From: Candidatus Scalindua sp.
GTDB taxonomy: Bacteria > Planctomycetota > Brocadiia > Brocadiales > Scalinduaceae
Assembly (NCBI GenBank): GCA_018648405.1
Contig: JABGRF010000250.1
Location: 1 to 24,000 of the forward strand
DNA length: 24,000 nt
Reading direction: 5' to 3'
Made by a program: the position numbers and the translations under genes. Positions within the stretch are counted from its first letter, which is position 1. Every line of letters starts with the position of its first letter. Shown in pieces: positions 5,691 through 23,455 of the stretch. The notes beneath the pieces are model-generated. The model had not been told where the DNA came from. It saw only the letters and a list, made by a program, of their open reading frames with translations, and made no database searches.

Positions 5691-6476
5691 ATGTTTGGGA
5701 AAGAAAAAGAATCAAAAGAGTTTTTTGAAGTATTCAAAACACCACATGATGCAGAAGATAAATGTGACAGTAAGGTGCTTCGAAGAGAGCAGATGAATCC
5801 AACGGTCTTACCCCGACCGGGTCATAAAAAAATTGAAGAGGAGACTGTACCTGATATTATTGTAGATGAAAAGAGAGAGACGGAACAGCTTGGCTGGATT
5901 CAGGACTCGCGAAAAGAGGAAGAGGCTCCACCTGATACTAGAAAGTCTAGAAAACTATTTCTAAATGAAGTTGTTATTAAGCAGGAAACTTTGATTTTTG
6001 GTGCGTTAGGTGCGGTTTTCCTATCATTAGCGTGTTTCTTTGTCGGTTATAAAATTGGTACTAAAAATGAATTAACGCCTGAGATAGTGCAGAAATCTGT
6101 TGAATATGCTGAGTTAGAAGGAGGGGTTAAGTCGGTACCTAAGGGCAGGAAGATAAAAGCTGTAGATTTGTCACCAAAAAAACCGTTGATGGTCGCGGAT
6201 AAAAAGGCTGCAAATATTAAATGGACTCTTCAGATTATATCTTACAGCGATACAAAACAACATATTAAGAAGGCACGTGATCTGGCAAAAGCCATCAAAA
6301 ATATGACGAATTACAATACATTTGTAGCAAAGAGAGGTAAGGAAATTGTTGTATGTACGGGTAAATTTAATTCTAAGGATAGTAATGAACTAAAGAAGGC
6401 TTTGAATTCAATCAGCAAGTTAGAATACGAAGGAAAGAAGCAATTCGCAAGTAGCTATCCAATTCAAGTGCGATAA
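5691..6476 (+). CDS. bitopic membrane protein with a C-terminal SPOR-like (peptidoglycan-binding) domain
   Basis: 261 aa. Charged cytoplasmic N-terminus of ~100 aa. One TM helix LIFGALGAVFLSLACFFVGYKIG (nt ~5988-6056). C-terminal ~85 aa KWTLQIISYSDTKQHIKKARDLAKAIK...FVAKRGKEIVVCTGKFNSKDSNELKKAL (nt ~6219-6470) fits the SPOR pattern. SD aaGGGGttgtaATG. Confidence 0.6.
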   Translation: MFGKEKESKEFFEVFKTPHDAEDKCDSKVLRREQMNPTVLPRPGHKKIEEETVPDIIVDEKRETEQLGWIQDSRKEEEAPPDTRKSRKLFLNEVVIKQETLIFGALGAVFLSLACFFVGYKIGTKNELTPEIVQKSVEYAELEGGVKSVPKGRKIKAVDLSPKKPLMVADKKAANIKWTLQIISYSDTKQHIKKARDLAKAIKNMTNYNTFVAKRGKEIVVCTGKFNSKDSNELKKALNSISKLEYEGKKQFASSYPIQVR

Positions 6477-7907: not shown

Positions 7908-8795
7908 CTAAAAGAACAACTTTATGGTATCTGCCTCTTTTTCTATATTTTCCGCCATCGTTTGCTGGAATCTACTCAGATCAGATACATCCCACTCCAT
8001 TCCAAATGTCTTGGATAGCTTTATCGCATCACCGTAAAAAAGATCGGCTTCAAAAGGCTCTCCTTCTTCCGCCTCATCCTGCATTTCGTAAACATGTGTA
8101 AGGATGTCGGCAACGTGTACAATCATCGGAAAGTTAGACTTTTTGTCTGCTTCCTGTGGGTGATGATGATAACCGACTGCGGTCAGCAGGCTTTCCGGAA
8201 ACATCCACTTCTTGAGAAGTTTCATTCCAACTTCATCATGAGTCATCCCAAAGACGTCTTTCTCTGCTTCAAAGGCTGTGTATTTTATTTTTAAAGGGTT
8301 CATGATTTCTGCCTGCATCATAAATTCACCGGGAAAGGTGATATACATGGCTAATTTCCCTATATCATGAACCAGGCCTGCTACAAATAGTTCACTGCTT
8401 TCTATCTTCATATCGACAGCAATTGTCTTTGCCGCAAGTGCGCAATAGAAGGAGTGCCTCCAGAATTTGTTAATATCAAATTTATTGTTTTTCCCCAAAT
8501 TCTTAAAACTATCAAATGCAACAGTAGATATTACCAGATTCCTGATTTCCTTGAAACCCAGGACAGTTACAGCGTGTTGAAGGGAGGATATTTCTCTTGT
8601 AAGACCATAAAATGGAGAATTGGCAATTTTGAGTATCTTCGTAGTAAGGGATACGTCCGGACTGATAATGTCCATGAGATCGTTCGCTGAGCTTTTCGGA
8701 TTAGCAGTGATCTCCATGACACGAAGTGCCACTGTTGGCAAAGTCGGTATAGATTGAAGCCTGGCAATAAGTGTTGATGCTGCTTGAGAGCTCAT
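7908..8795 (-). CDS. HDOD-domain signalling protein
   Basis: 295 aa. LPTLPTVALRVMEITANPKSSANDLMDIISPDVSLTTKILKIANSPFYGL...SSLQHAVTVLGF, followed by GLVHDIGKL, the typical HDOD layout. Confidence 0.8.
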   Translation of the reverse strand: MSSQAASTLIARLQSIPTLPTVALRVMEITANPKSSANDLMDIISPDVSLTTKILKIANSPFYGLTREISSLQHAVTVLGFKEIRNLVISTVAFDSFKNLGKNNKFDINKFWRHSFYCALAAKTIAVDMKIESSELFVAGLVHDIGKLAMYITFPGEFMMQAEIMNPLKIKYTAFEAEKDVFGMTHDEVGMKLLKKWMFPESLLTAVGYHHHPQEADKKSNFPMIVHVADILTHVYEMQDEAEEGEPFEADLFYGDAIKLSKTFGMEWDVSDLSRFQQTMAENIEKEADTIKLFF

Positions 8796-8917
8796 ATTGG
8801 TAAATCCTCTAACTTTTAAATAATTTTGTCAAAAACTATATTTTAATGCCTGTTTTCTCACCGTAATAATTCACTGCACATGTACGCCAGGTCCGGAGGG
8901 TGAGACCGCTCCTCTTT

Positions 8918-10537
8918 TTACCTCGCCTTACACACCTTTTCACGTGCTTGTTCTAAGACCTCTGCTGGCACAGAAAAAAGTTCTTGCCTCTCAATGATAT
9001 CAAAAAATAGAGAAACCAGCATTGGGTCAAACTGTGTGCCTGCCTTATCAGCAAGTTCTGCTATCATCTCTTCAGGAGACATCTTCGCTTTATATAGCCG
9101 TCCGGATAACATTGCCGCGATTGCATCAGTCATGGCAAATATTCGTGCGCCAAGGGGGATTTCGCTTTCTTTAAGCCCATCGGGGTAACCGGTTCCATTA
9201 TAGTTTTCATGGTGATGCTGAAGTATAGACTTCTCGTTGGCAAAAAAATCGAACATGTCTATCAGTTCTGATAGCATGTACGGATGGTCTTCAATCTCAT
9301 TCCTCTCTTCATTGTTTAACACTTTATTTTTAGCTTTTAAAGTTTTTCTCAGTAAAACTTTAAAATTGTCGTGAAAATTTGCCGAACGCTTAAAAGTTTC
9401 GATAATAGAGGGAGGAAGGGCAAGTGTTTCACCGATAAGGTTAATGTATCTCTTTACATCGTGATTATGTTGCTTGTGTTCCTTACCACCTAGATCACGA
9501 GTCAGAAGTTCTAACGATTCTATAGAAGATTTTTTTGTTTTTTCTAAAATCACTGAAAGACTTTCTTTCAGGTGTCCTAAATCACGGTCTTCACTAATTT
9601 TATTATCTTCAGATATCCAGGAAGGTTTCTTCATGTAAACAGTAATCCTGTTTCTTCCTTCTGCCTTAGATTGATAAAGGGCTTTGTCTGCACATGCAAT
9701 AATCTCTCTACCCTCTGTTAGTTGGTGCTGTTTTAGAGATGCAATACCTATACTTACAGTTACAGTTGTTGAATTGTTACCATCGACATACTTCTTCTTT
9801 TCACATCTTGTACGAATTTTTTCAGCCAGTTTTTGTGCCCCGGCAATACCGGTGTTCGGGAGAAGTACCATAAATTCTTCTCCACCATATCGGATGGGAA
9901 TATCAGTTTTTCGTGCATTTTGCTTTAGCTCCTCAGAAAATTCACGTAAAACTAAATCACCAAAGGTGTGCCCAAATGTATCGTTAACGTCTTTGAAACA
10001 GTCCAAATCAAGCAGGATACAAGATAAATCTGTTTTGTATCTCTGCGCACGTGCAAACTCCGTTCTAAGGATTTCCAGCATGTAGTGACGATTATACAAG
10101 CCAGTTAACTCGTCATTGCTTGCTTGTTTTGCAAAATTGTCACGTACAGACAAAAGCTCTTCATTCAATTCAATAATACGCTTTCCTGCCTTCAGGCGAA
10201 CCCTTAGTTCATTTTGATCGAACGGCTTGGTAATATAGTCGTCTGCCCCTGCATCCATTCCTTTGACAAAATCATCATGTTTGCCCTTAGATGTAAGTAA
10301 CAGTATAAATGTATACGGTTCCCTGGCCAGTTTTCTTACCTTACGGCATATCTCTACACCATCCATTCCAGGCATCATCCAATCGAGTATCAGAAGACTT
10401 GGCGCATTTTTTGACTTAATTACATCCCAGGCATCAAGACCATCCTTGCATGATACAACCTCATAGCCCATGTCTGTCAAAAGCTTTTCCAATCTGCGCC
10501 TTGTTATATTCTCGTCGTCTGCAATTAATACTTTCAT
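8918..10537 (-). CDS. response regulator with REC, GGDEF (diguanylate cyclase, I-site present) and HD-GYP (phosphodiesterase) domains
   Basis: REC: MKVLIADDEN...LILDWMMPGMDG...ITKPF (nt ~10178-10537). GGDEF: DELTGLYNR...RKTD-IPIRY-GGEEF, with RxxD exactly 5 residues before GGEEF (nt ~9638-10120). HD-GYP: FHDNFK ... HHHENYNGTGYPDGL...IPLGARIFAMTDAIAAM (nt ~8978-9505). Its start overlaps the Hpt gene's stop (ATGA at 10534-10537). Confidence 0.85.
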   Translation of the reverse strand: MKVLIADDENITRRRLEKLLTDMGYEVVSCKDGLDAWDVIKSKNAPSLLILDWMMPGMDGVEICRKVRKLAREPYTFILLLTSKGKHDDFVKGMDAGADDYITKPFDQNELRVRLKAGKRIIELNEELLSVRDNFAKQASNDELTGLYNRHYMLEILRTEFARAQRYKTDLSCILLDLDCFKDVNDTFGHTFGDLVLREFSEELKQNARKTDIPIRYGGEEFMVLLPNTGIAGAQKLAEKIRTRCEKKKYVDGNNSTTVTVSIGIASLKQHQLTEGREIIACADKALYQSKAEGRNRITVYMKKPSWISEDNKISEDRDLGHLKESLSVILEKTKKSSIESLELLTRDLGGKEHKQHNHDVKRYINLIGETLALPPSIIETFKRSANFHDNFKVLLRKTLKAKNKVLNNEERNEIEDHPYMLSELIDMFDFFANEKSILQHHHENYNGTGYPDGLKESEIPLGARIFAMTDAIAAMLSGRLYKAKMSPEEMIAELADKAGTQFDPMLVSLFFDIIERQELFSVPAEVLEQAREKVCKAR

Positions 10538-10878
10538 TCAACAAATTCCTTTAATGCATTTACCAGGCATTCTACCTCTTTCACCAAAGTATTATAAGCC
10601 TCCTCAACTCCATCCAGTCTGCTTTCCCTGCCCATCAGCTCCAATTGTAAAGCTGCTTCAAAAGCTGCTTTCTCTTCAAAATTAGCAATTGCTCCTTTCA
10701 GCTTGTGTGCCGCTCTCTCTATATCGTTACTATTACGGCTGTCAACAGCCTTTTGAATTCCGGAAAGTTGCTCTGGGACGTCATTTATTAATACCTCTAT
10801 AAGTTCTCCTAAAAACCCTTCATCTCCATCAAACTTTTTGAGTAACTCGTCCTTATCAAATAATTTATTACTTTCCAT
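10534..10878 (-). CDS. stand-alone Hpt (histidine phosphotransfer) protein
   Basis: 114 aa, helical, with the phospho-His motif AAHKLKGAIANF. Translationally coupled to the downstream REC-GGDEF-HD-GYP gene. Confidence 0.8.
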   Translation of the reverse strand: MESNKLFDKDELLKKFDGDEGFLGELIEVLINDVPEQLSGIQKAVDSRNSNDIERAAHKLKGAIANFEEKAAFEAALQLELMGRESRLDGVEEAYNTLVKEVECLVNALKEFVE

Positions 10879-11052
10879 TTGTTTTCCGTTAAAGTTGCCA
10901 TTGATACTTATTAATATGGTTCCAGATAGCTTAACAGGAGTTTGATTGTTCTTCCAACTAAATCTATGCCATTAATTTTAATGCTGAAAACACTTCAACT
11001 CTGCTTAGTGTGACATCATTCCCAGTCACTCTGGCATGTGAAGCCGTAGAGT

Positions 11053-11628
11053 CTAACCCGGTAATCTTCCCAGTTGTGAAATCAGTTTTTTACGAATGCC
11101 TTCCGGTGGCAGGACATAATCTACCTTCCCAGTTTTAATAGCTGACTTGGGCATTCCCCAGACTACACTGGTGATTTCATCCTGGGCAAACGTAACTCCT
11201 CCTATAGATTTTATGTAGCTTAATCCGTCTGTCCCATCCATTCCCATACCAGTCATAATGACTCCTGTAATATTGTCTTCCGCTGTTTTCCTGATTGATT
11301 TCATCGTTACGTCCACTGCTGGACGTACAAAACACACCTTCGGGCTTTCAACCAGTTGTATCATCTTATTATTAATGAGTTTCAGATGAACTTCACTTGG
11401 TGCAAAGTATACAACTCCGGGTTTCATTGATTCTCCATGACTGGCAATCTTAACTTCCATTTCAGTTAAACTATTTAATGTCGCACATAATGACCGGTTT
11501 GCACACTTTATCATATGCTGAACGAGCACGATACTTGCGTCCAAAAGTGGTAACCCGTCAAAGAAACCTCTCAATGTTTTAGGGCCACCAGTTGAAATTC
11601 CAATAATTACTATATTTCGTTTTTTCAT
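11053..11628 (-). CDS. CheB-type methylesterase/deamidase catalytic domain, no receiver domain
   Basis: 191 aa. The sequence contexts of the CheB Ser/His/Asp triad are all present: IGISTGGP, LVQHM, TGMGMDGTDG. Also AQDEITSVVWGMPKSAI. The N-terminus starts directly in the catalytic domain. Confidence 0.8.
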   Translation of the reverse strand: MKKRNIVIIGISTGGPKTLRGFFDGLPLLDASIVLVQHMIKCANRSLCATLNSLTEMEVKIASHGESMKPGVVYFAPSEVHLKLINNKMIQLVESPKVCFVRPAVDVTMKSIRKTAEDNITGVIMTGMGMDGTDGLSYIKSIGGVTFAQDEITSVVWGMPKSAIKTGKVDYVLPPEGIRKKLISQLGRLPG

Positions 11629-11655
11629 TGTTTATAAGGCTCCACCGCACTTTTC

Positions 11656-12030
11656 CTACTGTACGTATTCAATATACTCTGTCACTACTTCCAAAAGTTC
11701 TTCGGAAGTGAATGGTTTTCTCACGTAGTCCATTACGTACTCTGTCAGCTTTTCCAATTTTGGACAGGGATCATGCACTGCCGTAAGCATGCAGATAACA
11801 TTTCCTTTGTACAGCCCTTCGTCCTCAATCGCTGCAATAGTATCCCATCCGTCCATTTTCGGCATCATAACGTCCATCAGGATCAAGCCTCTGAAACCCT
11901 CTCTCAGCCTGTCCAGACATCCCTGTCCACTCTCAACAGCACAGATTGAATATCCACTTGTTTTGAGAATAATATCAACAGTAGACCTGATGGAGGGGTC
12001 GTCATCTACCACCATTATTTCCTTATTCAT
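11656..12030 (-). CDS. single-domain response regulator (REC only)
   Basis: 124 aa. VVDDDPS..., phospho-acceptor context LILMDVMMPKMDG, MLTA, VRKPF. Confidence 0.85.
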   Translation of the reverse strand: MNKEIMVVDDDPSIRSTVDIILKTSGYSICAVESGQGCLDRLREGFRGLILMDVMMPKMDGWDTIAAIEDEGLYKGNVICMLTAVHDPCPKLEKLTEYVMDYVRKPFTSEELLEVVTEYIEYVQ

Positions 12031-12051
12031 TTTTCTACTCCAATTAAATTA

Positions 12052-13182
12052 CTATTTCTCACTTTGTCTGATTGGGAGTGTAAAATGCACACTTGTCCCG
12101 TGTCCGGATCCCTGACTTTCAGCCCGGATAGATCCACCATGATTTTCGACTATTCGTTTGCAGATGGTAAGGCCCAACCCGGTTGAGGAACGATCAGTCC
12201 TTGAATCATCTGCCTTGTAGAATTCTTCAAATATACGTTTTTGCTGCTCGATAGTCATTCCTATCCCTGTATCTTTAATGGATATCTCTACATTATCATC
12301 CTTCAGAAAACTTTCAAACGTTACAACTCCATCTCCATTTGTATATTTAATTGTATTGCTAACAAGGTTATGAATTAATTCTTTGATCAACATTCTGTCT
12401 GCCTCAATGTCAAGAGGCGTGGTCGTATTGTTCACGATCTCAATCCCATTCTCTTTGAATACAGATGATAGGCTTTCAATGGTATTCCTGATTTCACTTG
12501 CGAGATCAACTTTTTCAACTCTTAACGAGACTTCGGGTGAATTCAATTGTGCAAGTTGAAGTGTTCTTTCTGTCAGATTTCTCATGTAGTCGACATTATT
12601 CATTATCAAATCCAGCATTTTCTTAGACTCGACATCCTCAGTTCGTTCGGCGACCATTGGCAAAAGTGCTACAAGAGGAGTCAGGGGTGTTTTCAAATCA
12701 TGACTGAGTTGGTTGACAAACGCATCCTTTTGTTCGAGAAGCTGTTTAATTTCCTCTGTTCTTTGATCCACACGCTCCTCAAGCTCAAGGTTCATGGTTG
12801 CTAACTGGTCTTGCAATTGTTTGGTACGTAAGGCCGCTCTTACCCGGGCTCGTAATTCGAATGAGTCAAAAGGTTTTGTGACGTAGTCTACAGCACCTAG
12901 ATCCAGCCCTCTGACACGGCTTTTATTGTCATCTGCAGCAGTAAGGAAAACGACCGGAATCATAACAAGTTCGGCATCATCCTTCAGGATCTGACAAACC
13001 TCAAATCCGGACATATCAGGCATGTCCACATCCAGAAGAATCAAATCCGGCTTTTCCTGTCGAGCCGACTCCAGTGCGCTTTTTCCATCCTCTACGCAGA
13101 GAACTTCAAGGCCTTCCTTTTTCAGATGAACTTCGGCAATAGCCATGATTTTTGTGTTATCGTCTACAATTAAAACTTTCAT
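12052..13182 (-). CDS. cytoplasmic REC-HisKA-HATPase hybrid histidine kinase
   Basis: 376 aa. REC (MKVLIVDDN...LILLDVDMPDMSG...VTKPF), a coiled-coil linker, H-box FVNQLSHDLKTPLTPL, and ATPase G-boxes DTGIGM and GLGLTICKRIV. No TM segment. Confidence 0.85.
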   Translation of the reverse strand: MKVLIVDDNTKIMAIAEVHLKKEGLEVLCVEDGKSALESARQEKPDLILLDVDMPDMSGFEVCQILKDDAELVMIPVVFLTAADDNKSRVRGLDLGAVDYVTKPFDSFELRARVRAALRTKQLQDQLATMNLELEERVDQRTEEIKQLLEQKDAFVNQLSHDLKTPLTPLVALLPMVAERTEDVESKKMLDLIMNNVDYMRNLTERTLQLAQLNSPEVSLRVEKVDLASEIRNTIESLSSVFKENGIEIVNNTTTPLDIEADRMLIKELIHNLVSNTIKYTNGDGVVTFESFLKDDNVEISIKDTGIGMTIEQQKRIFEEFYKADDSRTDRSSTGLGLTICKRIVENHGGSIRAESQGSGHGTSVHFTLPIRQSEK

Positions 13183-13293
13183 GTTTTATAATCCATCCTG
13201 CATAACTGGTTACTCAGAGAATGCTTTCTCTATTCTACTTTAAAAATGCTGCAGTCTTTCTGTTAAAAGAGCTCAGGCTACAATTCGAGATTC

Positions 13294-16200
13294 TCAGGTT
13301 TGTACCTTTCTGCCTTGATCCGCTGCATGGCAAAGTACTTCAAACTCGTCCAAAGCAGTTGTGCAGGTTTCAATATCCCCAGCTTTTGCTGCCTCTTCCA
13401 GTGTCTTTGCTACTTTAGTCAACATTGGGTATCCATAGCTGCCTCCTGCGCCTTTCATCTGGTGCGCCAGCCGTTGTAGACCTTCATGGTCACTACTCTT
13501 TAACGCCTTGCGCATAGACTCTGTATCTTCTTCCAACCCGGCAACAAACTCATCGATGAGTACTCTCAGATCTGAATCATCTGCATATTCGGAATAAATT
13601 GTCTCTGTCACATCTTGCTTTGTCTCTTTAGATGCTGTTATTTCCGGTACTGATGTTGTCGATAATTGCCGTTTTTTTCCGTTACTCAGGTTCCTGTCTA
13701 TTGCATCGGCAAGCGTCTTTTTGTTGATCGGCTTGGATACATAATCGTCCATACCAGCCTTAAGGCACTTTTCGCGATCGCCCTTCATGGCATTAGCGGT
13801 CATGGCTATTATCGGGGTTTTATGATTCAGAACGGCTGAATTCTCATCACGTATGGTACTGGTAGCTTCATAACCGTCCATCAACGGCATATGGCAATCC
13901 ATCAATACCAGGTCGTAATCAAATTTCTCCAACAAGTCGACGGCCTCTTTGCCATTAACAGCGACATCCGTATGGTATCCAAGTTTCTTTTCCAATATAT
14001 GTAATGCAATCTTCTGGTTGACAACATTATCTTCTGCCAGAAGTATGCGAACACGTTGTTTATGATCCTCAGAGATAGAATATTTGGTAACTATTTGACC
14101 GGTTGTATCTTCCCCATCACTTGCAGTTTCTCCGGTAACTATCCTGAGACAATCCAGCAGCAGTGATTGCTTTATCGGCTTATTCAGATATGCCGCAAAT
14201 CCCAACTCTTTAAAATGCTCTGCATCCCCTCTACTACCAACAGAAGTCAGCATCACAAGGATCAGGTTCTTAAATTTTGGATCTGCCTTGATATCCTTGC
14301 AAAGTGATTCTCCATTTACCTCAGGCATACTATAATCAAGCAGGGCAATCTCAAATGGATCTTTATTATTAACAGCTTCATACAGCTTCTTCATGGCTTC
14401 CTTAGCAGAGATAGCCTCTTCAGTCCGGCAAGACCAGGATTCGAGGTACTTGCTAAAGATGTTACGATTAGTACCGTTATCGTCAACAATTAATACCCGT
14501 TTATTTTTTATGTCTCCCAGATCTGTTGGAATCGGCTGCTGATCATAAGGTTGTTTTTCCATCACAGCTGTAAAAAAGAAAGTAGAACCTTCCCCCTCTT
14601 TGCTTTTCACACCGATTTGTCCTCCCATCAATTCAGTAATTTGTTTAGAAATTGCCAATCCCAGTCCGGTGCCGCCATACTGCCTGGTAGTAGATGCATC
14701 TGCCTGAGAAAATGATTTGAACAGACGATCCATACGATCAGCAGGTATTCCTATGCCGGTATCTTTGACATCAAACCGTACTGTGACATGAGATTCTGTC
14801 TCTTCCACAAGAATTACATTAATTTCTACTTTTCCGCTGTCTGTAAATTTGATGGCATTTCCGGTAAAGTTAATCAAAACCTGCCGTAACCGTCCCGGAT
14901 CACCACGCAATAGGGACGGTACTTCCGGGCTCACAAAATAGGATATTTCCAGACTCTTCTCATATGCCTTAATGGCGAGAATATCAATGGTACTCTCCAC
15001 GGCAATACGCAGATCAAAATTTATGTTCTCTAAATCCATTTTCCCGGCCTCTATCTTGGAGAAATCCAGGATGTCATTAATGATGGTAAGTAGAGAGCCT
15101 GTACTGTCTCGAACAGTATCTGCAAATCCACGCTGTTCATGAGTTAACTTTGTGCCTAGTAAGAGATCCGCCATGCCCATTATACCGTTCATTGGTGTGC
15201 GTATCTCATGGCTCATATTGGCAAGAAACGTACTCTTGGCTGTATTAGCAGCTTCTGCTGCCTCTTTGGCAACATGCAGTTCTTCTTCCGCCCGTTTTCT
15301 TTCCGTTACCCTGCCCAATTGTGTAGCAAGGGGAGATATGATTTGCAGTAAGGATTGATCCGGTTCTAACTTTTCTGAGGAGAAGAACTCTAACACTGCT
15401 ACAACTTCGTTTCTTTCCAATATGGGGAAAGCAAATCCGCTTTTAACTTCAGTGCTTTCAGATAATCTTGCCCTGGGGAAATTAGGATCCTCTATTAAAT
15501 CTGAAATCCACAAGGGTTTTTTGCTTTCCAAAACCCGTCCCGGCAAGCCGGCACCTTTGACAAATGTTGTAGTTTCAGTATCTTTCATAAACTCTTTATA
15601 CCTCTTGTAATGATCGAAATACCATAGGTCAGTAGGTGTCATATTACCTTCTGCGTTCAACATGTATACATGTCCAAGTGAGAAGTTTGTAAACTCGCAT
15701 ACTTTGCCAAGACTGGTACGCATAGCTTCTTCTAAAGTAAGTGCTTCATTGGCGGTGACTGCTACTTCCTGCAATAGACGAACAAGTTTCGCCTCCTTAC
15801 GTAATGCTACTTCTGCCCTTTCCCGCGCATCTTCAGTATACCTGCGTGAAATACCTATGCTTAACACATTTGAGAGTTTACGCAGAAATGTTACTTCGTT
15901 CTCCACCCGCTTGTGGCCTTCCCGGAGATAAAGTACTAAAACTCCGAGCAGTCTCTCTTCCTGCATTATGGGTATGTTGTAGAGTCCATGCGGTTTCATA
16001 CCTTCAAAGCGAATATCGTGACGATCGTCTACACAATCAGAGAATTGAACATCACGCTTCTCTGCCGCTCTGCCGCACATACATTTCCCGAAAGGGACCT
16101 GTGCGCACAGCGTCTGTAGTTCTGGTGCAAGATTGTGATTTGTGACGAGTTTCAGGGTATCTGTTTGTTCATCTAAGTCAGTGAGAAAGATACCTCCACG

Positions 16201-18774
16201 GGAGAAAGAACCCAGCCATGGCAGAGAATCCAGTATCATATTCAATGACATTTTGAGAAATTCTTGTGTATCCAGAGTTTGATGCGTCAGGTGCATGACT
16301 TTGCCGAGGATCTCTTCTGTAATAGCGATCTTTTCTGCCCTTTTTTGGGCGTCGAACGCTTCTTTCATCTTGACCAGAGCAATTTTTTCACTCCTTTTAA
16401 GCGCTTCTTCTATCCGCTTGCGTCTTGTAACGTCTTCATTAACTGAAGTAAAGTGAGTAATATTACCATCACTGTCTTTGACGGGCGAAATAGATGACTG
16501 TTCCCAGTAGAGTATACCGTTTTTCTTTTTATTGCAGAATTCTCCATGCCAGTCACTACCGGATTTGATAGTATCCCACATTTTTTTATATTCTTCGAGG
16601 GGAGTCTTTCCGGATTTTATTATGCTTGGGGTTTGCCCAAGTACCTCTTCAGAAGTGTAACCGGTCAATTCTGTGAACTTGGGATTGATATATTCAATCT
16701 TGCCTTCATAATCCGTAATCATTACTGAAGTGGGGCTTTGTTCAACAGCACAAGATAAACTTTTTCTTTCATTAATTTCTTTAGTAAGTAGATTAGTCAT
16801 CATGTTAAAGCCGTTGGCCAGTGCTCCAATCTCATCTCTCGACTTAACTTCAGCTCTTTGCAAAAAGTCGCCTTTTGCAATTTCTTGTGAAACCCCGGTT
16901 AATTTTTGGATAGGGTTTAGAACCCGAATTCTCAACCACTGAATGAAGAGAGCGAAAACAAAAATTGTAGAACCAAGAATTATGTAGCCGATCCACATAC
17001 CTCTCTTTGCAGTCGCTTCCATTTTCAACACGGCGACACTTGCATCTCTACTGGATAAATTTGATATGGCCAATCCTGTATTGATTGCTTCTGTTGCTGC
17101 GTCAAACCAGGCTGCAGCGCTAACCGGATACTCTATCCCTTTGACTTGTTTAATAAATATCCAGGACTTGTCTGTTTCATAATCAAAATCAAGAAAAAAT
17201 GGTTTGTAAACAATTACTTCTCCTGATGCCAGACGGATATTTCCTTTCTTTCCTGAAAGAATCTGCTCTTTAGCATCAGGATAGTCTTGTTTTATATTAT
17301 GATGTGATATGTTCAATCGCTGCATCATTCCCCACTCTTTCACTTTATCCGGGTGGTGGATGTAGAATCCGTTCTGATTAGCTAATATATAGTCTTCTCC
17401 TTTTTCAATTTCTATGCCTTTGTGTAAAAGAGAGGAAGTATTTACTGACAAATTGAATACTACTATACAGCTTTGCTCTCCGTCTGTATGAACGGGTGTT
17501 GCAAAACGCATAACAGGTTTATATGGTGTTTCAATGCTTCCGTGTTCTATGTTGAGATCAAGCGAAGATACATAAATACTTCCTAATGGTAGATTTATGG
17601 AATCTGTAAAATAGTATCTGTCACTCTTGTCTTGTAATAGTGGGCCACGAATTATTTTGCTGGTATCACCATCAAAATTAACACGCACTCGCTCATAACC
17701 GGAATTATCCAAAATCCTAATCTGTCCAAAGACAGTTTTTATCTGAGAAAAGGAGCTAATTAGATTTTCAACAGAAATCAGCTGCTCAGATAGTTGAGTA
17801 TTGTCTTCTTCCCTCAATGATCTGGCTAATGCGACCACACTCTTATGCTTGCTCATACTCAGCAGATCAGTAGATATTCCATGTAAATAATTACGAAATG
17901 TCAGAATTCTTTTATCAATTTGTGTTTCAGCTCTCTTTTGCTCTTCTTCTTGCCTCTCACTTGCCGAGAAAACGTTCTCCCTTAAAAGCTGAAATGATTG
18001 CATGAATTCTTTTTCAAATGTCTCTATAGCCAGTTTCATTCGACTTGAAGTAGTTGGAAACTTTTTTAAAGCTATCACTTGTCCTAGAGATTGGTCGACT
18101 ACTGAACGGTAGCGTTTGATTTCTTTGGTTGTCTCATCAGAGAAACGTTTTCCGGATGCAATAGCATTACCGACAAGAGCCCGCTCTTTTCCTGCATATT
18201 CGCATAACCTTGCAATATTGGGGCGCAGGACGCTATTTAAATAGAGTATCGTCTCCTCTTCTCTTTGCGGGGTAAAGGTGGTATCGAGCAAGTTGAATTC
18301 ATTATTAATATTAAGGGTAACGATATCAATCCACTCATCTTTGGAAATGCCTCTGTTTTCGATTCTGGGACGGGTAAGCGTATGGGCCTCATAACTCCTG
18401 CGCCACGTATTCAGTCTTTCAACAAGTACTTTATCCTTCATGATACTCAGAAGCTTTCTTATCTCTTCTTCAGCCTGTGAGACTTCGGAATCTCCCTTCT
18501 CTGCCATTTCAAGAAATGTTGAAAACAGGGGCGATGAATTTCCTTTGTCATCCCCTATTATCGTAGCGCCATAACCACGTTCAATAGCTTGCCACCCAGT
18601 TGCATTATTCAGGTGAATGACAATTTTATTCCTTATAGTATATTCATCAGATAGTTTTTTCGTTTTGAAAGATCTTCTTATTGACATTCCTGACAGCGTA
18701 GTCAGTACACATAATAAGATCACCGAAACAAATAGTGTTTGATATTTTAGTGTTTTAAATTTATGGGTCTTCAT
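13294..18774 (-). CDS. giant transmembrane hybrid sensor histidine kinase: large periplasmic sensor, HAMP, PAS, 2 x GAF, HisKA-HATPase, 2 x REC, Hpt
   Basis: The track ORF begins at a TTG (18840). The first ATG is at 18774 ([24 protein letters not shown]..., a basic N-terminus running straight into TM1), so I prefer 18774. Numbering below is from the TTG. TM1 ~35-53. Periplasmic ~54-615 (nt ~16996-18681), with a NIT-like helical module ([12 protein letters not shown] and [15 protein letters not shown]) and a Cache-like module ([14 protein letters not shown]...RYYFTDS...). TM2 [26 protein letters not shown] 637-690. PAS 697-808. GAF1 ~850-1000. GAF2 ~1020-1178. H-box [15 protein letters not shown] (His codon 15208-15210). 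HATPase [20 protein letters not shown]1 ([11 protein letters not shown]). REC2 ([13 protein letters not shown]). Hpt ([13 protein letters not shown]). Confidence 0.85.
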
Positions 18775-18851
18775 ATTATTTCTTGTCAGGTTATCTTCGA
18801 AAGGGTGGATAATCTGTTGATCATTGAATATACGCGACAAAAGTTAATAGT

Positions 18852-19130
18852 TTATAGATCTGGCAGTGTAATGTCATGTTCTCCTGCAATCTTTTTTGCA
18901 AGCATTATACAGCCTATCTTTGCCGTCACTCCAGCGTAGCCAACGTAACACTCTATTAATTTTTCTGTCGCACTGTTGCCGTCACCCGCGAAGCTTTCTA
19001 CAGTACCGTTATCAAGAACCTCTAATCCGGCCTCTTTTGCACCGGCCAGAGCCTTTTCGGTTCCCAGCACTCCAAATTGCCGTTGAACAATTGCCGTTAA
19101 TATTGCAAGATAACCGTTTTGGTTACTCAT
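18852..19130 (-). CDS. hypothetical 92-aa soluble protein (no family recognised)
   Basis: MSNQNGYLAILTAIVQRQFGVLGTEKALAGAKEAGLEVLDNGTVESFAGDGNSATEKLIECYVGYAGVTAKIGCIMLAKKIAGEHDITLPDL. No TM helix or signal peptide. Tightly packed between the di-iron protein gene (35-nt gap) and the giant kinase gene. The coding call rests on ORF length, position and strand only. Confidence 0.5.
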   Translation of the reverse strand: MSNQNGYLAILTAIVQRQFGVLGTEKALAGAKEAGLEVLDNGTVESFAGDGNSATEKLIECYVGYAGVTAKIGCIMLAKKIAGEHDITLPDL

Positions 19131-19165
19131 TTTTCTAGTCCTCTTTTCTGTGTGAATTTCAAGAT

Positions 19166-19900
19166 TTAAACCCAGGTGCCCACTTCTAATTCCCGAGCGG
19201 CCTGCATATATATTTCGATGTCTTTGTCAATTATAGAACCATGTTGCGGGCATATTCTTTCTATTGCTATTGTTTCTAATTTATCTAATGCGCTATCTAA
19301 TGCGAGTTTTGATCCCAGATATGGTTCTGTAAAAGCTTTAAATGCTTCGAGATAATTCTCGTTTGCGTATAGATTCCAATCTATAGAGAATCCCCCGAAT
19401 ATATCGCTTGAAAAGACCGTCTTTGTCTTTTCGTCGTATGTTACCATTGAACCCGCAAAGTGTACGTAAGGGGTATGCACAAACGTTAAAATTCTGCCAC
19501 TTTTTAATGAAAATGGTTCACCGTCTTCAACAGTAATCACCTCAGAAACCGAGTCATAATATCTCATAAATGGCGCCGCTCTGGTTGGTGTTATAATCTT
19601 TACCCTGGGATTAACTATCTCTTCGAACAGTGGTATCGCGGCACATATGTCAGGGTCCTGGTGATGAGCTACAATGTAGTTGATTCTCTCCGGTTCCACA
19701 ACTGAACACACTTTTTCCTTCACTATGTTAAAATGTTCCGGTGCTCTCGAACCGGGATCAAAAAGTATCACATCTTCTCCATCATCCAGAATATATGGAT
19801 TATTGGAAAATCCCGCTTTTCTATCTGCAAAGCCCACCCAATAGATTCCTTCAACTATCTCGTGTGCTTTTGATTCATCATAAGTCTTAAAAGCATTCAT
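19166..19900 (-). CDS. stand-alone metallo-beta-lactamase-fold di-iron domain protein (flavodiiron-protein core without a flavodoxin domain; ODP-like)
   Basis: 244 aa. Colinear with the FDP N-terminal domain: EGIYWVGFADR...NPYILDDGEDVILFDPG, INYIVAHHQDPDICAA (in place of H-x-E-x-D-H), VHTPYVHFAGSMVTY, VFSSDIFGG, ICPQHGSII. AGGAG Shine-Dalgarno 13 nt upstream of the ATG. Confidence 0.7.
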   Translation of the reverse strand: MNAFKTYDESKAHEIVEGIYWVGFADRKAGFSNNPYILDDGEDVILFDPGSRAPEHFNIVKEKVCSVVEPERINYIVAHHQDPDICAAIPLFEEIVNPRVKIITPTRAAPFMRYYDSVSEVITVEDGEPFSLKSGRILTFVHTPYVHFAGSMVTYDEKTKTVFSSDIFGGFSIDWNLYANENYLEAFKAFTEPYLGSKLALDSALDKLETIAIERICPQHGSIIDKDIEIYMQAARELEVGTWV

Positions 19901-20055
19901 TTTTATTTCACCACTCCTAAATAGATTAACTTTCAGGTTAATAGAAGATATTGTATTTGTATTTCAAGTTAGATCGTTGTCAGCATTGTAATTTTGATAC
20001 AATAAGCGCAGTTTAGAGAGCAAAATAGTTGCCAATTGGACTATTAGAAATGTTT

Positions 20056-20069
20056 AATGTTTAAACATT
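20056..20069. promoter_or_regulatory. perfect 14-bp palindrome AATGTTTAAACATT in a divergent intergenic region (candidate operator)
   Basis: The sequence is its own reverse complement. It is preceded by a half-site-like direct copy, aaatgttt (20048-20055). It lies 156 nt upstream of the di-iron gene start and 416 nt upstream of the cytochrome gene start. Confidence 0.3.
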
Positions 20070-20403
20070 TTTACTGGTTTTATACATTCGTGCTAACCTT
20101 TGAGAGCTCTTTGTTGAACTGAGTAATTATCGGAGCGTCTTTTGACGGCTTGTCCTGCATAACTCTATGCGTAGTTGGTGTTTATGACTTTAGTCAGAGA
20201 GGAGGGTCTTTTCATATTACGCTAGTTAAAAAAGATCTCTTTTGTAGATAAATTTTACAAGACGGTATAAATTTCAAAATAGTTTATCTATTTATCAGAT
20301 AGAGAACAAAAAAGTATGAGTAATACGGGTAGTATATGTTGTTATTTTAAACAAAATATCTGTTTTTTGAGTGATTGTGTATCAATTTTCAGAATATCAT
20401 CTA

Positions 20404-20432
20404 TGGGAAAATCCATATAACCTCTGTATAAT
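20404..20432 (+). promoter_or_regulatory. candidate promoter for the multihaem cytochrome operon
   Basis: Perfect -10 TATAAT (20427-20432) immediately preceded by TG. The -35 is weak (tgggaa, 20404-20409) at 17-nt spacing. The -10 ends 52 nt upstream of the ATG at 20485. Confidence 0.3.
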
Positions 20433-20484
20433 ACTACTCATTAGTCAATTGTAATCAGTTATTTAAAATACCAAGGCAAATACC

Positions 20485-22903: not shown

Positions 22904-23455
22904 ATGGCTCTGCTAAAATCAATCAATGTACCATTAGGGACAAAGGCGGTAGACTTTTGCTTAAAGGGTATAGATGGTAAAATGCACTCTCTTGCTGACT
23001 ATAATGATAAGGACGTTTTAGTTATTGTCATTATGTGTAACCATTGCCCTTATGTTCATGCGGTGGATGACCGACTTATTCAACTGCAGGATAAATTTGC
23101 AGAACGAAATGTCCAGCTTATCGGAATCAACCCTAATGATGGAATCAAATACCCTGACGACAATTTTGAAAATATGGTTAAGAGGGCGAAGGAAAAAGGA
23201 TACAACTTTCCATACCTGAGAGATGAAGATCAAGCTGTTGCAAAGAAATATAAGGCTCAATGTACTCCTGATATATACGTTTACAACAGAGAGAGGGAGC
23301 TGTGTTACCACGGCCAGATAGATGACAACTGGCAGCATCCAGAAAAAGTAACATCGCACGATCTGAGCGATGCTATTGAAGCACTGCTCGGAGGAAATAA
23401 GCCATCTTCCGATCAATACCCATCAATGGGGTGTTCGATCAAGTGGAAGGAGTAA
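22904..23455 (+). CDS. thioredoxin-fold (AhpC/TSA/redoxin-like) protein with a CxxC active site
   Basis: 183 aa. VLVIVIMCNHCPYV (Cys45-x-x-Cys48) in the usual redoxin position. No signal peptide. Strong SD (atAGGAGGttgaaATG). Starts 25 nt after the cytochrome stop. Confidence 0.75.
   Translation: MALLKSINVPLGTKAVDFCLKGIDGKMHSLADYNDKDVLVIVIMCNHCPYVHAVDDRLIQLQDKFAERNVQLIGINPNDGIKYPDDNFENMVKRAKEKGYNFPYLRDEDQAVAKKYKAQCTPDIYVYNRERELCYHGQIDDNWQHPEKVTSHDLSDAIEALLGGNKPSSDQYPSMGCSIKWKE

Follow-up and report, generated by a model that had tools for sequence, protein, structure and literature searches.

Nine co-directional genes on the minus strand of a 24,000-nucleotide stretch of DNA (hereafter the window) from Candidatus Scalindua sp., a marine anammox bacterium, bring together histidine kinases, receivers (REC), a CheB, a c-di-GMP enzyme and a di-iron protein, and the question raised by this locus is whether they form a single signalling system and, if so, what it senses and what it controls. 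The author of an earlier note knew of no characterised pathway with this composition; our search of the searchable literature likewise found none.

Gene layout and domain content

The nine minus-strand ORFs and their spacings were reproduced as the earlier note had given them (Table 1). From ODP to HDOD, the intergenic gaps computed from the coordinates are 35, 11 (or 77), 111, 21, 27, 174, -4 and 122 nt. The second value depends on the start of the transmembrane hybrid kinase HHK: gene callers mostly choose the ATG at 18774, which yields 1826 aa, and the TTG start yields 1848 aa. The negative value is a 4-nt overlap between the Hpt stop and the start of REC-GGDEF-HD-GYP, and internal promoters could fit into the 111-, 122- and 174-nt gaps. 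Sigma-70 and terminator scans of the cluster region gave scores not above those of shuffled controls, and the terminator scan found no terminator-like site on the coding strand of the inter-module gaps. Redox genes, for AhpC and a multihaem cytochrome, adjoin the cluster.

Table 1. Genes of the cluster and the adjoining intergenic region, with the basis of each assignment.
Feature	Position	Strand	Basis
ODP, di-iron protein, 244 aa	19166-19900	minus	ORF and Pfam
p92, 92-aa protein	18852-19130	minus	ORF; without Pfam family
HHK, transmembrane hybrid histidine kinase	13294-18840 (TTG start)	minus	ORF and Pfam
REC-HisKA-HATPase (REC-HK), 376 aa	12052-13182	minus	ORF and Pfam
Single-domain REC, 124 aa	11656-12030	minus	ORF and Pfam
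CheB, catalytic domain only, 191 aa	11053-11628	minus	PF01339, 184.7 bits
Free Hpt, 114 aa	10534-10878	minus	PF01627
REC-GGDEF-HD-GYP	8918-10537	minus	Pfam GGDEF (157.9 bits), Response_reg, HD_5
HDOD protein, 295 aa, final cluster gene	7908-8795	minus	PF08668, 201.9 bits
Intergenic region of 584 nt separating ODP from the divergent multihaem cytochrome gene	19901-20484	none	Presumed cluster promoter region, from layout

Pfam assignments were counted when above gathering scores, and phospho-acceptor and catalytic motifs were read by eye in the translations. The HMM scan of the nine ORFs confirmed all eight domain assignments made previously, each exceeding its gathering score, and the count of five REC domains, two kinase cores and two Hpt domains was correct. 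All H-boxes, the Asp/Thr/Lys residues of 5/5 RECs and the HxxKG motif of both Hpt domains are intact. HHK consists, in order, of a periplasmic NIT-like region (Pfam match of 24.5 bits, slightly under the cut-off of 24.9), a double-PDC sensor, HAMP, PAS, GAF, GAF, HisKA, HATPase, REC, REC and Hpt (Pfam content: HK_sensor_dom_bact, HAMP, PAS, two GAF, HisKA, HATPase_c, two REC and Hpt). Its periplasmic domain resembles the 2p7j/3lid sensor (E 4e-16), its H-box, the Asp of both RECs and the Hpt His are all retained, and NCBIfam comparison places it among BarA/TorS-like HisKA hybrids. REC-HK retains Asp51, the His161 H-box and the N and G boxes, and is predicted to be a receiver-gated second kinase. 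CheB_methylest is the only domain of the CheB protein (triad Ser12/His38/Asp131 intact), and His58 of the free Hpt lies within an HKLKG motif. REC-GGDEF-HD-GYP, in which HD_5 represents the HD-GYP family, retains GGEEF, the RxxD I-site and the HD...H...HHE..GYP...D motifs; as a putative bifunctional enzyme it would both synthesise and degrade c-di-GMP and would form the output of the relay, with HDOD as a putative accessory protein of the cluster. The proposed combination of a phosphorelay with a c-di-GMP enzyme is supported.

The earlier note had also drawn an analogy to Wsp. Taken literally, the cluster would be a Wsp-type chemosensory pathway with a HAMP-containing hybrid kinase replacing MCP and CheA. 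As in Pseudomonas Wsp (WspA-F, WspR), one cluster holds both an esterase of the CheB type and a REC-GGDEF output, and the kinase carries a HAMP domain. However, the analogy fails on its defining parts: neither Pfam nor the window annotation revealed an MCP (MCPsignal), CheA (H-kinase_dim, CheW-like P5), CheW or CheR in the window, an absence that had been noted before; no MCP-type methylation consensus was found in any cluster protein; and the kinase belongs with HisKA hybrids of the BarA/TorS type. Furthermore, the window CheB seems to have its regulatory domain encoded by a gene of its own, and HD-GYP is added to the output. We consider a Wsp-type pathway extremely improbable.

The ODP protein and its p92 companion

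The product of the head gene, described before as FDP-core-like, is indeed a di-iron protein, but specifically one with the HQDPD-type ligands and PF19583 match (171.7 bits, plus a Lactamase_B match) of an ODP (oxygen-binding di-iron protein). The best PDB sequence matches are the solved ODPs 6qrq/6qwo (E 1e-19), followed by 6qnm/6r9n, and the HQDPD..H..D..H ligand positions align with those of solved ODPs and are invariant in 23 homologues. The protein has a stand-alone metallo-beta-lactamase fold without flavodoxin domain. These features assign it to the ODP family, known as O2/Fe(II) sensors, and as such it would be a recognisable sensor, not an enzyme. At other loci ODP is fused directly to HisKA-HATPase(-REC-REC), PAS-HK, GGDEF, Guanylate_cyc, SpoIIE or REC, and it appears to be a general signalling input. 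Alternatively, the protein might be a detoxifying, flavodiiron-like O2/NO reductase that senses nothing and stands beside the signalling genes by co-location alone or because they regulate it. Its sequence resembles flavodiiron proteins and NorV cores, and the neighbouring AhpC and multihaem cytochrome genes would suit such an enzyme. However, its 244 aa hold an ODP domain only, without the flavodoxin domain required for flavodiiron turnover; the NorV score is 48 against a cut-off of 635 bits; the ligand motif is HQDPD (ODP type) and not HxExDH (FDP type); and the ODP domain recurs in fusions with kinases, cyclases, phosphatases and receivers. A reductase is therefore very unlikely.

The second gene encodes a protein, p92, with no Pfam match at E<=5 and no NCBIfam match at E<=0.001. 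Its AF2 model (pLDDT 89) comprises four helices and a hairpin, and structure comparison of this model found no PDB match. The homologues in Scalindua/Brocadiales (n=40) are nearly all 92 aa long and mostly 66-100% identical, and 98 remote representatives were collected. In a sample made up solely of ODPs 36-99% identical to the query, p92 lies beside or is fused to ODP in 37 of the 71 assessable metagenomic ODP loci; control loci yielded 0/60, with 0 matches over 1 Mb. It is the gene immediately after ODP in 17 loci, and in 20 metagenomic proteins it is flanked by the ODP domain on one side and a coiled coil-GGDEF-REC output on the other. ODP-p92 gene pairs adjoin CheA/CheW (L116, L126), an MCP (L093) or a histidine kinase (L069, L077), and in P0041 (planctomycete) and the L071 orthologue p92 is N-terminal to a CheB catalytic domain, with ODP as the next gene. 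Modelling of concatenated ODP and p92 with AF2 gave confident domains, but a pTM of 0.71, and an interface between the two is putative. Judged from these sequences, p92 belongs to an undescribed family that is widespread and keeps company with ODP, and we propose that it acts as a transducer or adaptor of ODP. This family membership was absent from the earlier note and is the least precedented feature of the cluster.

Conservation, modules and a putative split CheB

The same gene order is found on six independent metagenome contigs, and five further Scalindua-type loci retain large parts of the cluster at 55-90% amino-acid identity; the order is therefore not due to chance. The succession HHK, REC-HK, REC, CheB, Hpt, output is retained in the window, L007, L008, L010 and L156 (38-80% identity per gene, Hpt being lowest). 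REC-HK orthologues occupy the same position in L007, L008, L010, L156 (66%) and L157 (46% over the core), the free Hpt is conserved in L007-L010 and L156, REC-GGDEF-HD-GYP orthologues 68-80% identical are present in L007-L010 and L077, and HDOD immediately follows the output gene in L007-L010. ODP-p92 immediately precede the orthologous HHK in the window, L007, L077 and L078. Synteny of the nine-gene cluster in related genomes was thus found, but not as a fixed unit: ODP-p92 are missing from the L008 and L156 loci, REC-HK, REC and CheB from L077, and HD-GYP and HDOD from L156, whose output orthologue is REC-GGDEF only. The cluster is modular, and the modules ODP-p92, REC-HK/REC/CheB and HD-GYP/HDOD appear to have been gained or lost between relatives. 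As the core persists without them in L008 and L156, ODP-p92 are either dispensable or encoded elsewhere in those genomes.

Such variation would also be expected if the nine genes were no single system but juxtaposed independent modules (ODP-p92-HHK; REC-HK/REC/CheB; Hpt/REC-GGDEF-HD-GYP/HDOD) with partners mostly elsewhere. The presence of each module varies separately among relatives, the gaps of 111, 174 and 122 nt coincide with module borders, and in L010 an insertion of 1.1 kb is tolerated between the REC and CheB genes. However, the order from HHK to output is kept in the window, L007, L008, L010 and L156, the inter-module gaps lack a terminator-like site on the coding strand, and the free Hpt and single REC require donors and acceptors, which their neighbours supply. 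We regard independent modules as a possible but rather unlikely explanation.

The description of the CheB as REC-less holds at the gene level, but not for the pair: a single REC gene lies 27 nt upstream in the window, and in L156, L157 and L158 the CheB orthologue is likewise immediately preceded by a REC orthologue (64%, 57% and 46% identical, respectively), whose identity tracks that of CheB (63%, 54% and 51%). CheB homologues of ~190 aa were found down to 45% identity; in the genome scan, the non-Scalindua CheB matches were all canonical REC-CheB proteins of 332-425 aa, bar a few mis-trimmed or truncated ORFs. The single REC and CheB form a co-inherited pair resembling a split CheB, and the single REC is possibly also a relay intermediate. 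A chemotaxis operon (MCP, CheA, CheR) is present in a related assembly that also bears the L156 cluster.

The p92::CheB fusions suggest a different wiring, in which ODP-p92 would control CheB and not the kinase: p92 would replace the N-terminal regulatory domain of CheB, and O2-, Fe- or NO-loaded ODP would switch the methylesterase/deamidase, which would then modify a receptor or the kinase. Besides the fusions in P0041 and the L071 orthologue, with ODP adjoining, this wiring is favoured by the co-directional ODP, p92 and CheB without REC in the window. However, 7 kb separates p92 and CheB in the window, and L008, L156, L157 and L158 keep CheB and its REC partner without nearby ODP-p92. Conversely, L077 keeps ODP-p92-HHK without CheB, which leaves the kinase as the constant neighbour of ODP-p92. 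The fused CheB domain, 42% identical to the window CheB, is no closer to it than is the neighbouring canonical REC-CheB. We consider control of CheB by ODP-p92 improbable.

A phosphorelay model and its relation to known systems

The reading that we prefer, and to which we give an even chance, is that of a modular His-Asp phosphorelay with several steps, in which ODP-p92 provide input to the hybrid kinase and c-di-GMP is set via REC-GGDEF-HD-GYP. The order REC-HK, REC, (CheB), Hpt, REC-output fits a His-Asp-His-Asp relay, ODP-p92 precede the hybrid kinase in the window, L007, L077 and L078, the Hpt and output genes overlap by 4 nt, and the REC and CheB pair is conserved. Against this stand the persistence of the L008 and L156 core without ODP-p92, the p92::CheB fusions, which show that p92 is able to couple to CheB, and the absence of CheR and of a methylation consensus in the cluster proteins.

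HHK would integrate two inputs, one through its periplasmic part (NIT-like region and double-PDC domain) and one from a cytoplasmic two-protein sensor, ODP and p92, the latter serving as the adaptor onto the kinase. The ODP ligand may be O2/Fe(II), as in characterised relatives, and NO is conceivable in an anammox cell. We infer the order of phosphotransfer from domain logic and gene order, as we do the ligand, the protein contacts and the CheB substrate. Phosphate would pass within HHK from His to REC to Hpt, then from the HHK Hpt to the REC of REC-HK, gating the second kinase, and from the His of REC-HK through the single REC and free Hpt to the REC of the output enzyme, which would thereby be switched between making and degrading c-di-GMP. 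In a side branch, the single REC would double as a regulatory domain, in trans, for the CheB encoded next to it, whose probable substrates are chemoreceptors with genes in other parts of the genome. If this is true, chemoreceptor demethylation/deamidation (adaptation) is tied to the ODP-p92/HHK signal.

In H-NOX/HnoK with HnoB/HnoD (Shewanella, Vibrio) and NosP/NahK-HptB (Pseudomonas), gas sensors lie beside kinases that control c-di-GMP enzymes. A small gas-binding protein and a (hybrid) kinase share an operon, and Hpt phosphotransfer leads to REC-EAL or REC-HD-GYP. These systems would be closer functional analogues of the cluster than Wsp. In NCBIfam, the kinase shows sub-threshold similarity to NahK/ErcS, as does the output to NosR-type REC-HD-GYP, but all scores are far below family cut-offs and the cluster is therefore not a NahK/NosR-family member. 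It also differs in its sensor, a di-iron metallo-beta-lactamase fold and not a haem H-NOX/NosP fold, and in three additions, namely the putative adaptor p92, an apparent split CheB and a second kinase gated by REC. A path from a hybrid kinase with REC and Hpt to REC-HD-GYP is likewise found in RpfC-RpfG (Xanthomonas) and other hybrid-kinase/Hpt relays, whereas the window has a REC-GGDEF-HD-GYP output, a free Hpt, a second kinase tier and other inputs.

An ODP-chemoreceptor system was reportedly described by Muok et al. (2019, PNAS 116:14955). As described in PMC7666581 and PMC6978683, ODP works there with a cytoplasmic chemoreceptor that lacks a sensor domain, in Thermotoga maritima and in Treponema denticola (TDE2498/TDE2496). 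The window ODP shares their family, di-iron ligand motif and place as a stand-alone auxiliary sensor beside the signalling protein served; however, it adjoins a transmembrane hybrid HisKA kinase where those adjoin an MCP, and c-di-GMP would take the place of CheA/flagella as output. In the window the p92 gene lies between ODP and kinase; the presence of p92 beside ODP was surveyed among ODPs 36-99% identical to the query.

A REC-less CheB with only the catalytic domain is mentioned for Campylobacterota in PMC9321776; it belongs to CheA-based chemotaxis systems, whereas the window CheB has an upstream single-REC gene and lies in a HisKA phosphorelay cluster. Finally, in hemerythrin- and globin-coupled diguanylate cyclases, O2-binding metal centres control c-di-GMP synthesis (PMC9388753, PMC7033309). 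The window sensor differs in being a separate protein of a different fold that would act via a phosphorelay; the metagenomic ODP(-p92)-GGDEF fusions are the direct analogues of these cyclases.

Gene content and conservation of the cluster

All nine minus-strand ORFs that the earlier note had placed between positions 7908 and 19900 are present in the ORF table, with the intergenic distances that it gave (35, 11 or 77, 111, 21, 27, 174, -4 and 122 nt, the 77-nt value being counted from an ATG start). Pfam domain calls for these proteins all exceed the curated cut-offs (table) and add up to five REC domains, two kinase cores and two Hpt domains, as had been counted by eye; the 92-aa product of the second gene, hereafter p92, had been listed as unknown and indeed belongs to no Pfam family. 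Reading of the translations showed intact phospho-acceptors: the H-boxes, Asp/Thr/Lys in five of five RECs and HxxKG in both Hpt domains. By its sequence, the cluster thus carries the traits of the His-Asp multi-step phosphorelay family, with HisKA/HATPase, REC and Hpt domains bearing conserved phospho-acceptors. The output enzyme, REC-GGDEF-HD-GYP, scores 157.9 bits for GGDEF and 86.4 bits for HD_5 (Pfam); with GGEEF, an RKTD I-site (RxxD), FHDNFK, HHENYNGTGYP (HHE..GYP) and a downstream Asp, its predicted motifs for both c-di-GMP synthesis and hydrolysis are intact. Its gene shares a 4-nt overlap with the Hpt gene. Scans for promoters and terminators in the window gave the same counts as in shuffled sequences, and scanning it for Rfam families and tRNAs gave no match. 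The start of the large transmembrane hybrid kinase (HHK) is ambiguous, TTG and ATG each being chosen by gene callers on different contigs.

Features of the cluster, its flanks and the related loci (L-numbers)
Feature	Sequence	Position	Strand	Content
ODP gene	window	19166-19900	-	ODP/Lactamase_B
p92 gene	window	18852-19130	-	
HHK	window		-	HK_sensor_dom_bact, HAMP, PAS, two GAF, HisKA, HATPase_c, two REC, Hpt
HHK alternative starts	window	18774-18840	-	TTG 18840: 1848 aa, 11-nt gap; ATG 18774: 1826 aa, 77-nt gap
NIT match, HHK residues 87-293	window	~17962-18582	-	24.5 bits vs cut-off of 24.9, E 4e-5
Second kinase (REC-HK)	window		-	REC-HisKA-HATPase
Single REC gene	window		-	one REC
CheB gene	window		-	CheB_methylest alone
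Hpt gene	window		-	Hpt
Output gene	window		-	REC-GGDEF-HD_5
Last gene	window		-	HDOD
797-aa multihaem c-type cytochrome	window	20485-22878	+	Cytochrome_C7, weak MtrC-like; divergent from ODP promoter region
AhpC/TSA peroxiredoxin	window	22904-23455	+	divergent from ODP promoter region
261-aa protein	window	5691-6476	+	no Pfam match
76-97-aa ORF	window	between the 261-aa gene and 6724		
In-frame stop, HHK/Hpt domain	L077	14202-14214		ATG 9 nt later
Single REC and CheC/CheX-like phosphatase	L156	4942-5977		ahead of hybrid kinase
Insert of ~1.1 kb	L010	3288-4446		between single REC and CheB
p92::CheB fusion	L068	9974-10870		289-298 aa, p92 N-terminal; directly upstream of ODP
p92::CheB fusion	L071	9019-9915		289-298 aa, p92 N-terminal; directly upstream of ODP
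ODP and p92-family ORF	L074/L075	8001-9037		p92 ORF overlaps ODP stop
Direct ODP fusions	L095, L101, L120, L122, L136, L147, L153	~8001 (ODP, in some)		

The exact CheB-like protein is present in 222 metagenome-index blocks, the identical nine-gene order is found on six metagenome contigs of 20-32 kb, and the best matches of a genome scan, at 74-80% identity, lie in four Scalindua MAGs. When the neighbourhoods in relatives were compared, the conserved order proposed for the cluster stood, both on these six contigs and in the Scalindua-type loci L007-L010; its behaviour as a single unit did not, as modules vary independently, the ODP-p92 pair for example missing from L008 and from the more distant planctomycete L156. 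By tblastn, the run from HHK through REC-HK, REC, CheB, Hpt and output enzyme to HDOD is kept as far as the contigs reach in L007, L008 and L010, and L009 covers the distal part of the cluster only. In L007, ODP (91%) and p92 (86%) stand before a kinase that begins at PAS and lacks the membrane sensor; in L008 AhpC lies upstream of the kinase. An extra REC gene separates Hpt from the output gene in L007 and L009 (tblastn). L077 reads ODP (90%), p92, full-length HHK (66%), in-frame stop, Hpt, REC and REC-GGDEF-HD-GYP, with REC-HK, REC and CheB all absent, and L078 reads kinase tail, ODP, p92 and HHK. L156 shares the aminotransferase/261-aa flank and has AhpC upstream; there the order is REC, CheC/X-like, a 794-aa PAS-HK-REC-REC-Hpt kinase, REC-HK (66%), REC (64%), CheB (63%), Hpt and REC-GGDEF (59%), and neither HD-GYP nor HDOD is present. 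Because gene sets are kept or lost as blocks among L007-L010, L077, L078 and L156, this comparison indicates that the cluster is real and conserved and that it comprises three or more modules that can be separated: ODP-p92; REC-HK, REC and CheB, with or without Hpt; and the Scalindua-specific HD-GYP domain and HDOD. AhpC is the upstream neighbour also in L008 and L156, which gives ODP-p92, together with the cytochrome, the look of an insertion that parted AhpC from the kinase.

Such a make-up could also be read as a mere juxtaposition of modules, each with partners elsewhere. Presence and absence module by module and the larger intergenic gaps fit this reading, against which stand an order conserved over 38-80% identity and a complementary His/Asp inventory.

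Three local features of these relatives were noted. The lone in-frame stop that parts the hybrid kinase from its Hpt domain in L077 may reflect a true split of the gene, an error of sequencing or read-through. The REC and CheC/CheX-like phosphatase of L156 have no counterpart in the window. The insert of L010, seen in one Scalindua MAG, holds a 77-aa ORF that weakly resembles IS200-like transposases (Y1_Tnp, E 0.008, below the cut-off) and may be a decayed insertion. The window's own flanks are of housekeeping and redox type (PmbA, LigA, aminotransferase, the multihaem cytochrome and AhpC); the 261-aa gene, the small ORF beside it and the aminotransferase gene form the flank kept in L156, at 50% identity.

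The ODP protein and its small neighbour p92

The first gene of the cluster had been described as an FDP-core-like di-iron protein. The di-iron, flavodiiron-like similarity holds; the protein is, however, specifically assigned by its sequence to the ODP family, scoring 171.7 bits on PF19583 against a cut-off of 27.2, and its 244 residues give ODP/Lactamase_B matches only, with no flavodoxin domain (Pfam). The NorV models of NCBIfam give 48 bits against a cut-off of 635. The closest solved structures by sequence are the oxygen-binding di-iron proteins 6qrq/6qwo and 6qnm/6r9n, and alignment to ODP structures reveals the ligand motif HQDPD of the ODP type, not the flavodiiron HxExDH, with the downstream His, Asp and His also kept; H80, Q81, D82, P83, D84, H147, D166 and H220 are invariant among 23 aligned homologues. 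Outside Scalindua, Asgard archaea (Loki-, Heimdall-, Hod- and Odinarchaeia) supply most of the closest named homologues, which share 47-57% identity with it.

According to passages of two papers on Treponema denticola, ODP is an auxiliary O2/Fe(II) sensor acting on a sensor-less chemoreceptor and CheA (PMC7666581, PMC6978683). Coupling of this kind was not found here, the window having no MCPsignal domain and the ODP neighbours being p92 and the hybrid kinase. By family membership, the Scalindua ODP is a putative reversible sensor of O2 (as peroxo adduct) and Fe(II). That it would rather serve as a detoxifying enzyme is unlikely, given the missing flavodoxin domain and the repeated fusion of ODP to signalling domains. 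Fused without p92, ODP is joined to GAF-HisKA-HATPase-REC-REC, HK, PAS-HK, Guanylate_cyc, SpoIIE, GGDEF or REC (Pfam), and on these architectures ODP is best described as a general, modular sensory input for many kinds of signalling protein; fusions to other signalling domains may already have been noted in the original ODP description. Among the direct fusions located (table), the SpoIIE domain is a PP2C phosphatase and the cyclase is of the adenylate/guanylate type.

p92 has 40 close homologues, nearly all of 92 aa and mostly 66-100% identical, whose named sources are all Scalindua, Brocadiales or Planctomycetes. No Pfam match was obtained even at E≤5, nor any NCBIfam match at E≤0.001. An AlphaFold model computed from the homologue alignment (pLDDT 89, pTM 0.83) predicts four helices and a beta-hairpin, for which Foldseek returned nothing similar among solved structures (best E-value 1.9). 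A profile search of 1.8 billion representatives (E≤1e-3) retrieved 98 remote relatives, mostly of about 90 aa. One of them, P0041 (289 aa), is p92 over residues 2-82 (E 2e-25; 55% identity by tblastn) and a CheB methylesterase domain over residues 105-283; its operon encodes MCP, CheA, CheD, CheC, CheY, CheR, GGDEF, REC-CheB, p92::CheB and then, directly, an ODP 80% identical to that of the window. As p92::CheB stands in one operon with REC-CheB, this operon has two CheB enzymes; in the operon of L068 and L071, where such fusions are located (table), one of the two is controlled by its receiver and the other presumably by ODP. Another relative, P0061 (92 aa), directly follows an ODP (55%) which itself comes after a HisKA-HATPase kinase. 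Small unannotated ORFs matching the p92 profile were also found right after the ODP of a bacterial homologue (63% identity) and right downstream of the Candidatus Lokiarchaeum ossiferum ODP (56% identity). On the Ca. Lokiarchaeum ossiferum-like contigs L074/L075, the sole Asgard context examined, no recognisable signalling gene adjoins ODP-p92. Because the p92 relative P0048 lies on a 3-kb contig (L070) without ODP, the family may extend beyond its partnership with ODP.

To count the association, metagenome contigs were scanned with the ODP alignment and all ORFs at the best 80 of 495 relatives were searched with p92 profiles; this sample is biased to Scalindua-like ODPs, the spirochaete and Thermotoga types lying outside it. 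A profile made from stand-alone p92s only matched 14-15 downstream ORFs and 8 in-protein segments at the 80 ODP loci. With locus classes assigned after three iterations of the profile, p92 was the gene next to ODP at 17 loci and was fused directly after the ODP domain, at about residues 250-350, at 20; ODP was fused straight to another domain without p92 at 20 more and stood alone, with p92 not detected, at 14, the other 9 loci being too short for assessment. p92 is the commonest ODP neighbour or fusion partner among these best 80 of 495, and every p92 match above threshold at the 80 loci adjoins or is fused with ODP. In a control, the p92 profile had zero matches in 60 CheB-centred loci without ODP (1.0 Mb). 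The p92-containing fusions have the form ODP-(p92)-coiled coil-GGDEF-REC and 675-690 aa (L098, L100, L144; Pfam), and the neighbours of ODP+p92 gene pairs include CheA-REC/CheW (L116), CheA with REC and HD-GYP (L126), MCP (L093) and kinases (L069, L077).

From its position, p92 would act as a transducer or adaptor between ODP and output. AF2 run on concatenated ODP and p92 with block-diagonal alignments predicted each domain confidently, but the pTM of 0.71, without PAE, says little on their contact. A serious though tentative possibility is that p92 is a widespread and so far undescribed transducer domain that couples ODP to a variety of outputs, as a separate gene to histidine kinases, CheA and HD-GYP and as a fusion to CheB and GGDEF, in Planctomycetota, other bacteria and (as a gene pair) Asgard archaea, and that in Scalindua the ODP-p92 module brings a phosphorelay of two tiers and the bifunctional c-di-GMP enzyme under the control of O2 or NO.

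A CheB with a probable receiver on a separate polypeptide

The CheB protein of the cluster (191 aa) consists of the catalytic domain only (PF01339, 184.7 bits), with the triad Ser12 (GISTGGP), His38 (VQHM) and Asp131 (GMGMDG); Pfam detected no N-terminal receiver in the same polypeptide. Homologues of about 190 aa reach down to 45% identity, and the other CheB matches of the genome scan are nearly all of the usual REC-CheB type, 332-425 aa long and found in chemotaxis settings. An orthologue of the single REC lies upstream of the CheB gene in all relatives examined, immediately so in L156, L157 and L158, where the identities of the two proteins fall in step (REC/CheB 64/63%, 57/54% and 46/51%, respectively). 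In L157 a REC-PAS-HK gene is also upstream of the pair; in L158 the pair is alone. This immediate adjacency and the parallel identities argue that REC and CheB belong together; the simplest reading is a CheB with its regulatory receiver on a separate polypeptide, the single REC then acting in trans. That the REC descends from the N-terminal receiver of a canonical CheB was also considered and found no support: NCBIfam does not group it with CheB models, and it is only 26% identical to the REC of the fused relative P0359. Because these comparisons gave no CheB-receiver origin, the pairing is drawn from conserved adjacency.

A CheB substrate inside the cluster was sought with a methylation-consensus regular expression, strict and relaxed; the motif [ASTG][ASTG]xx[EQ][EQ]xx[ASTG][ASTG] occurred in none of the window proteins scanned. 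CheR is encoded neither in the 24-kb window nor in the syntenic loci L007-L010 and L156. As the assembly with L156 also has a full chemotaxis operon (L071), the most economical proposal is that the substrates would be chemoreceptors encoded elsewhere.

A candidate relay from ODP to c-di-GMP

Four Scalindua-type lineages, the CheB-less L077 among them, have the ODP-p92 pair immediately ahead of the hybrid kinase, and CheB with REC persists without ODP-p92 in L008 and L156-L158. We assign ODP-p92 to the kinase because the pair precedes it even where CheB is missing, whereas CheB-REC persists where ODP-p92 is missing. The p92::CheB fusions point to a rival wiring in which ODP-p92 regulates CheB. 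Against it, the two modules are distributed independently of each other, and the fused CheB, only 42% identical to that of the window, is no closer to it than any other. With ODP-p92 acting on the kinase, the pair would be a cytoplasmic O2/Fe(II) sensor adding to the periplasmic input of HHK; NO sensing is also conceivable, NO being an anammox intermediate. A first relay would run from the HHK His to REC to Hpt, and this Hpt would phosphorylate Asp51 of REC-HK. In a second relay, phosphate would pass from His161 of REC-HK to Asp53 of the single REC, to His58 of the free Hpt and to Asp52 of the output enzyme, and the single REC would activate CheB as well. The genes follow one another as the proposed relay does (REC-HK, REC, (CheB), Hpt, output), and the domain inventory is consistent with two chained relays, for which we infer phosphate flow, ligand and contacts alike. 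HDOD proteins, such as the product of the last gene, are frequent companions of systems of this kind, and we know of no established activity for them.

Each domain family is known, and the system as a whole falls within the two-component phosphorelay superfamily. The earlier note had likened it to Wsp, a reading contradicted by the absence of the defining components: as that note itself had recognised, no MCP, CheA, CheW or CheR occurs among the window genes, flanking genes included (Pfam), and no methylation consensus was seen in the window proteins scanned. A CheA-based chemosensory reading was rejected likewise, both kinases being of HisKA/HATPase_c type and H-kinase_dim, CheW and MCPsignal domains being absent. 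In logic only, the cluster most resembles H-NOX/HnoK and NosP/NahK, which are stand-alone gas sensor/kinase/c-di-GMP circuits; unlike these, it has no H-NOX or NosP Pfam match, and HHK, at 140-180 bits against NCBIfam cut-offs of 400-1500, is not a member of NahK/ErcS. The statement that no characterised pathway has this composition agrees with the literature searched on REC-less CheB and hybrid kinases and on c-di-GMP and chemotaxis in Scalindua, where none is described. That literature, Pfam and NCBIfam likewise hold no description of the ODP-p92 pairing, the p92 family, the p92::CheB fusions or a split REC/CheB pair in a non-CheA relay, nor does the literature searched describe an anammox ODP encoded ahead of a hybrid HisKA kinase. 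Of these elements, the p92 family has the best claim to being truly new.

A large part of the fixed nitrogen that the ocean loses is lost through Scalindua, which oxygen inhibits; to our knowledge, no mechanism is known for its sensing of O2 or NO or for its decision to aggregate. The cluster offers a testable candidate for this sensing, in which a protein from a known family of O2/Fe(II) sensors would be coupled to a c-di-GMP enzyme; if the proposal is true, anammox bacteria at the edges of oxygen-minimum zones would have in it a direct molecular switch from free-living to aggregated life and back. p92 occupies the place where a signal transducer would sit, which hints at the route by which ODP would reach signalling partners that are not chemoreceptors, and the pair reaches into Asgard archaea. 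The split REC and CheB in a non-CheA phosphorelay suggest that ordinary two-component kinases can drive chemoreceptor adaptation enzymes.

The periplasmic input of HHK comprises a NIT-like region and a VP0354-type double-PDC domain (Pfam and sequence comparison). The match of its first periplasmic region to NIT, a nitrate/nitrite-sensing domain, is sub-threshold (table) and may deserve attention in an organism that lives on nitrite.
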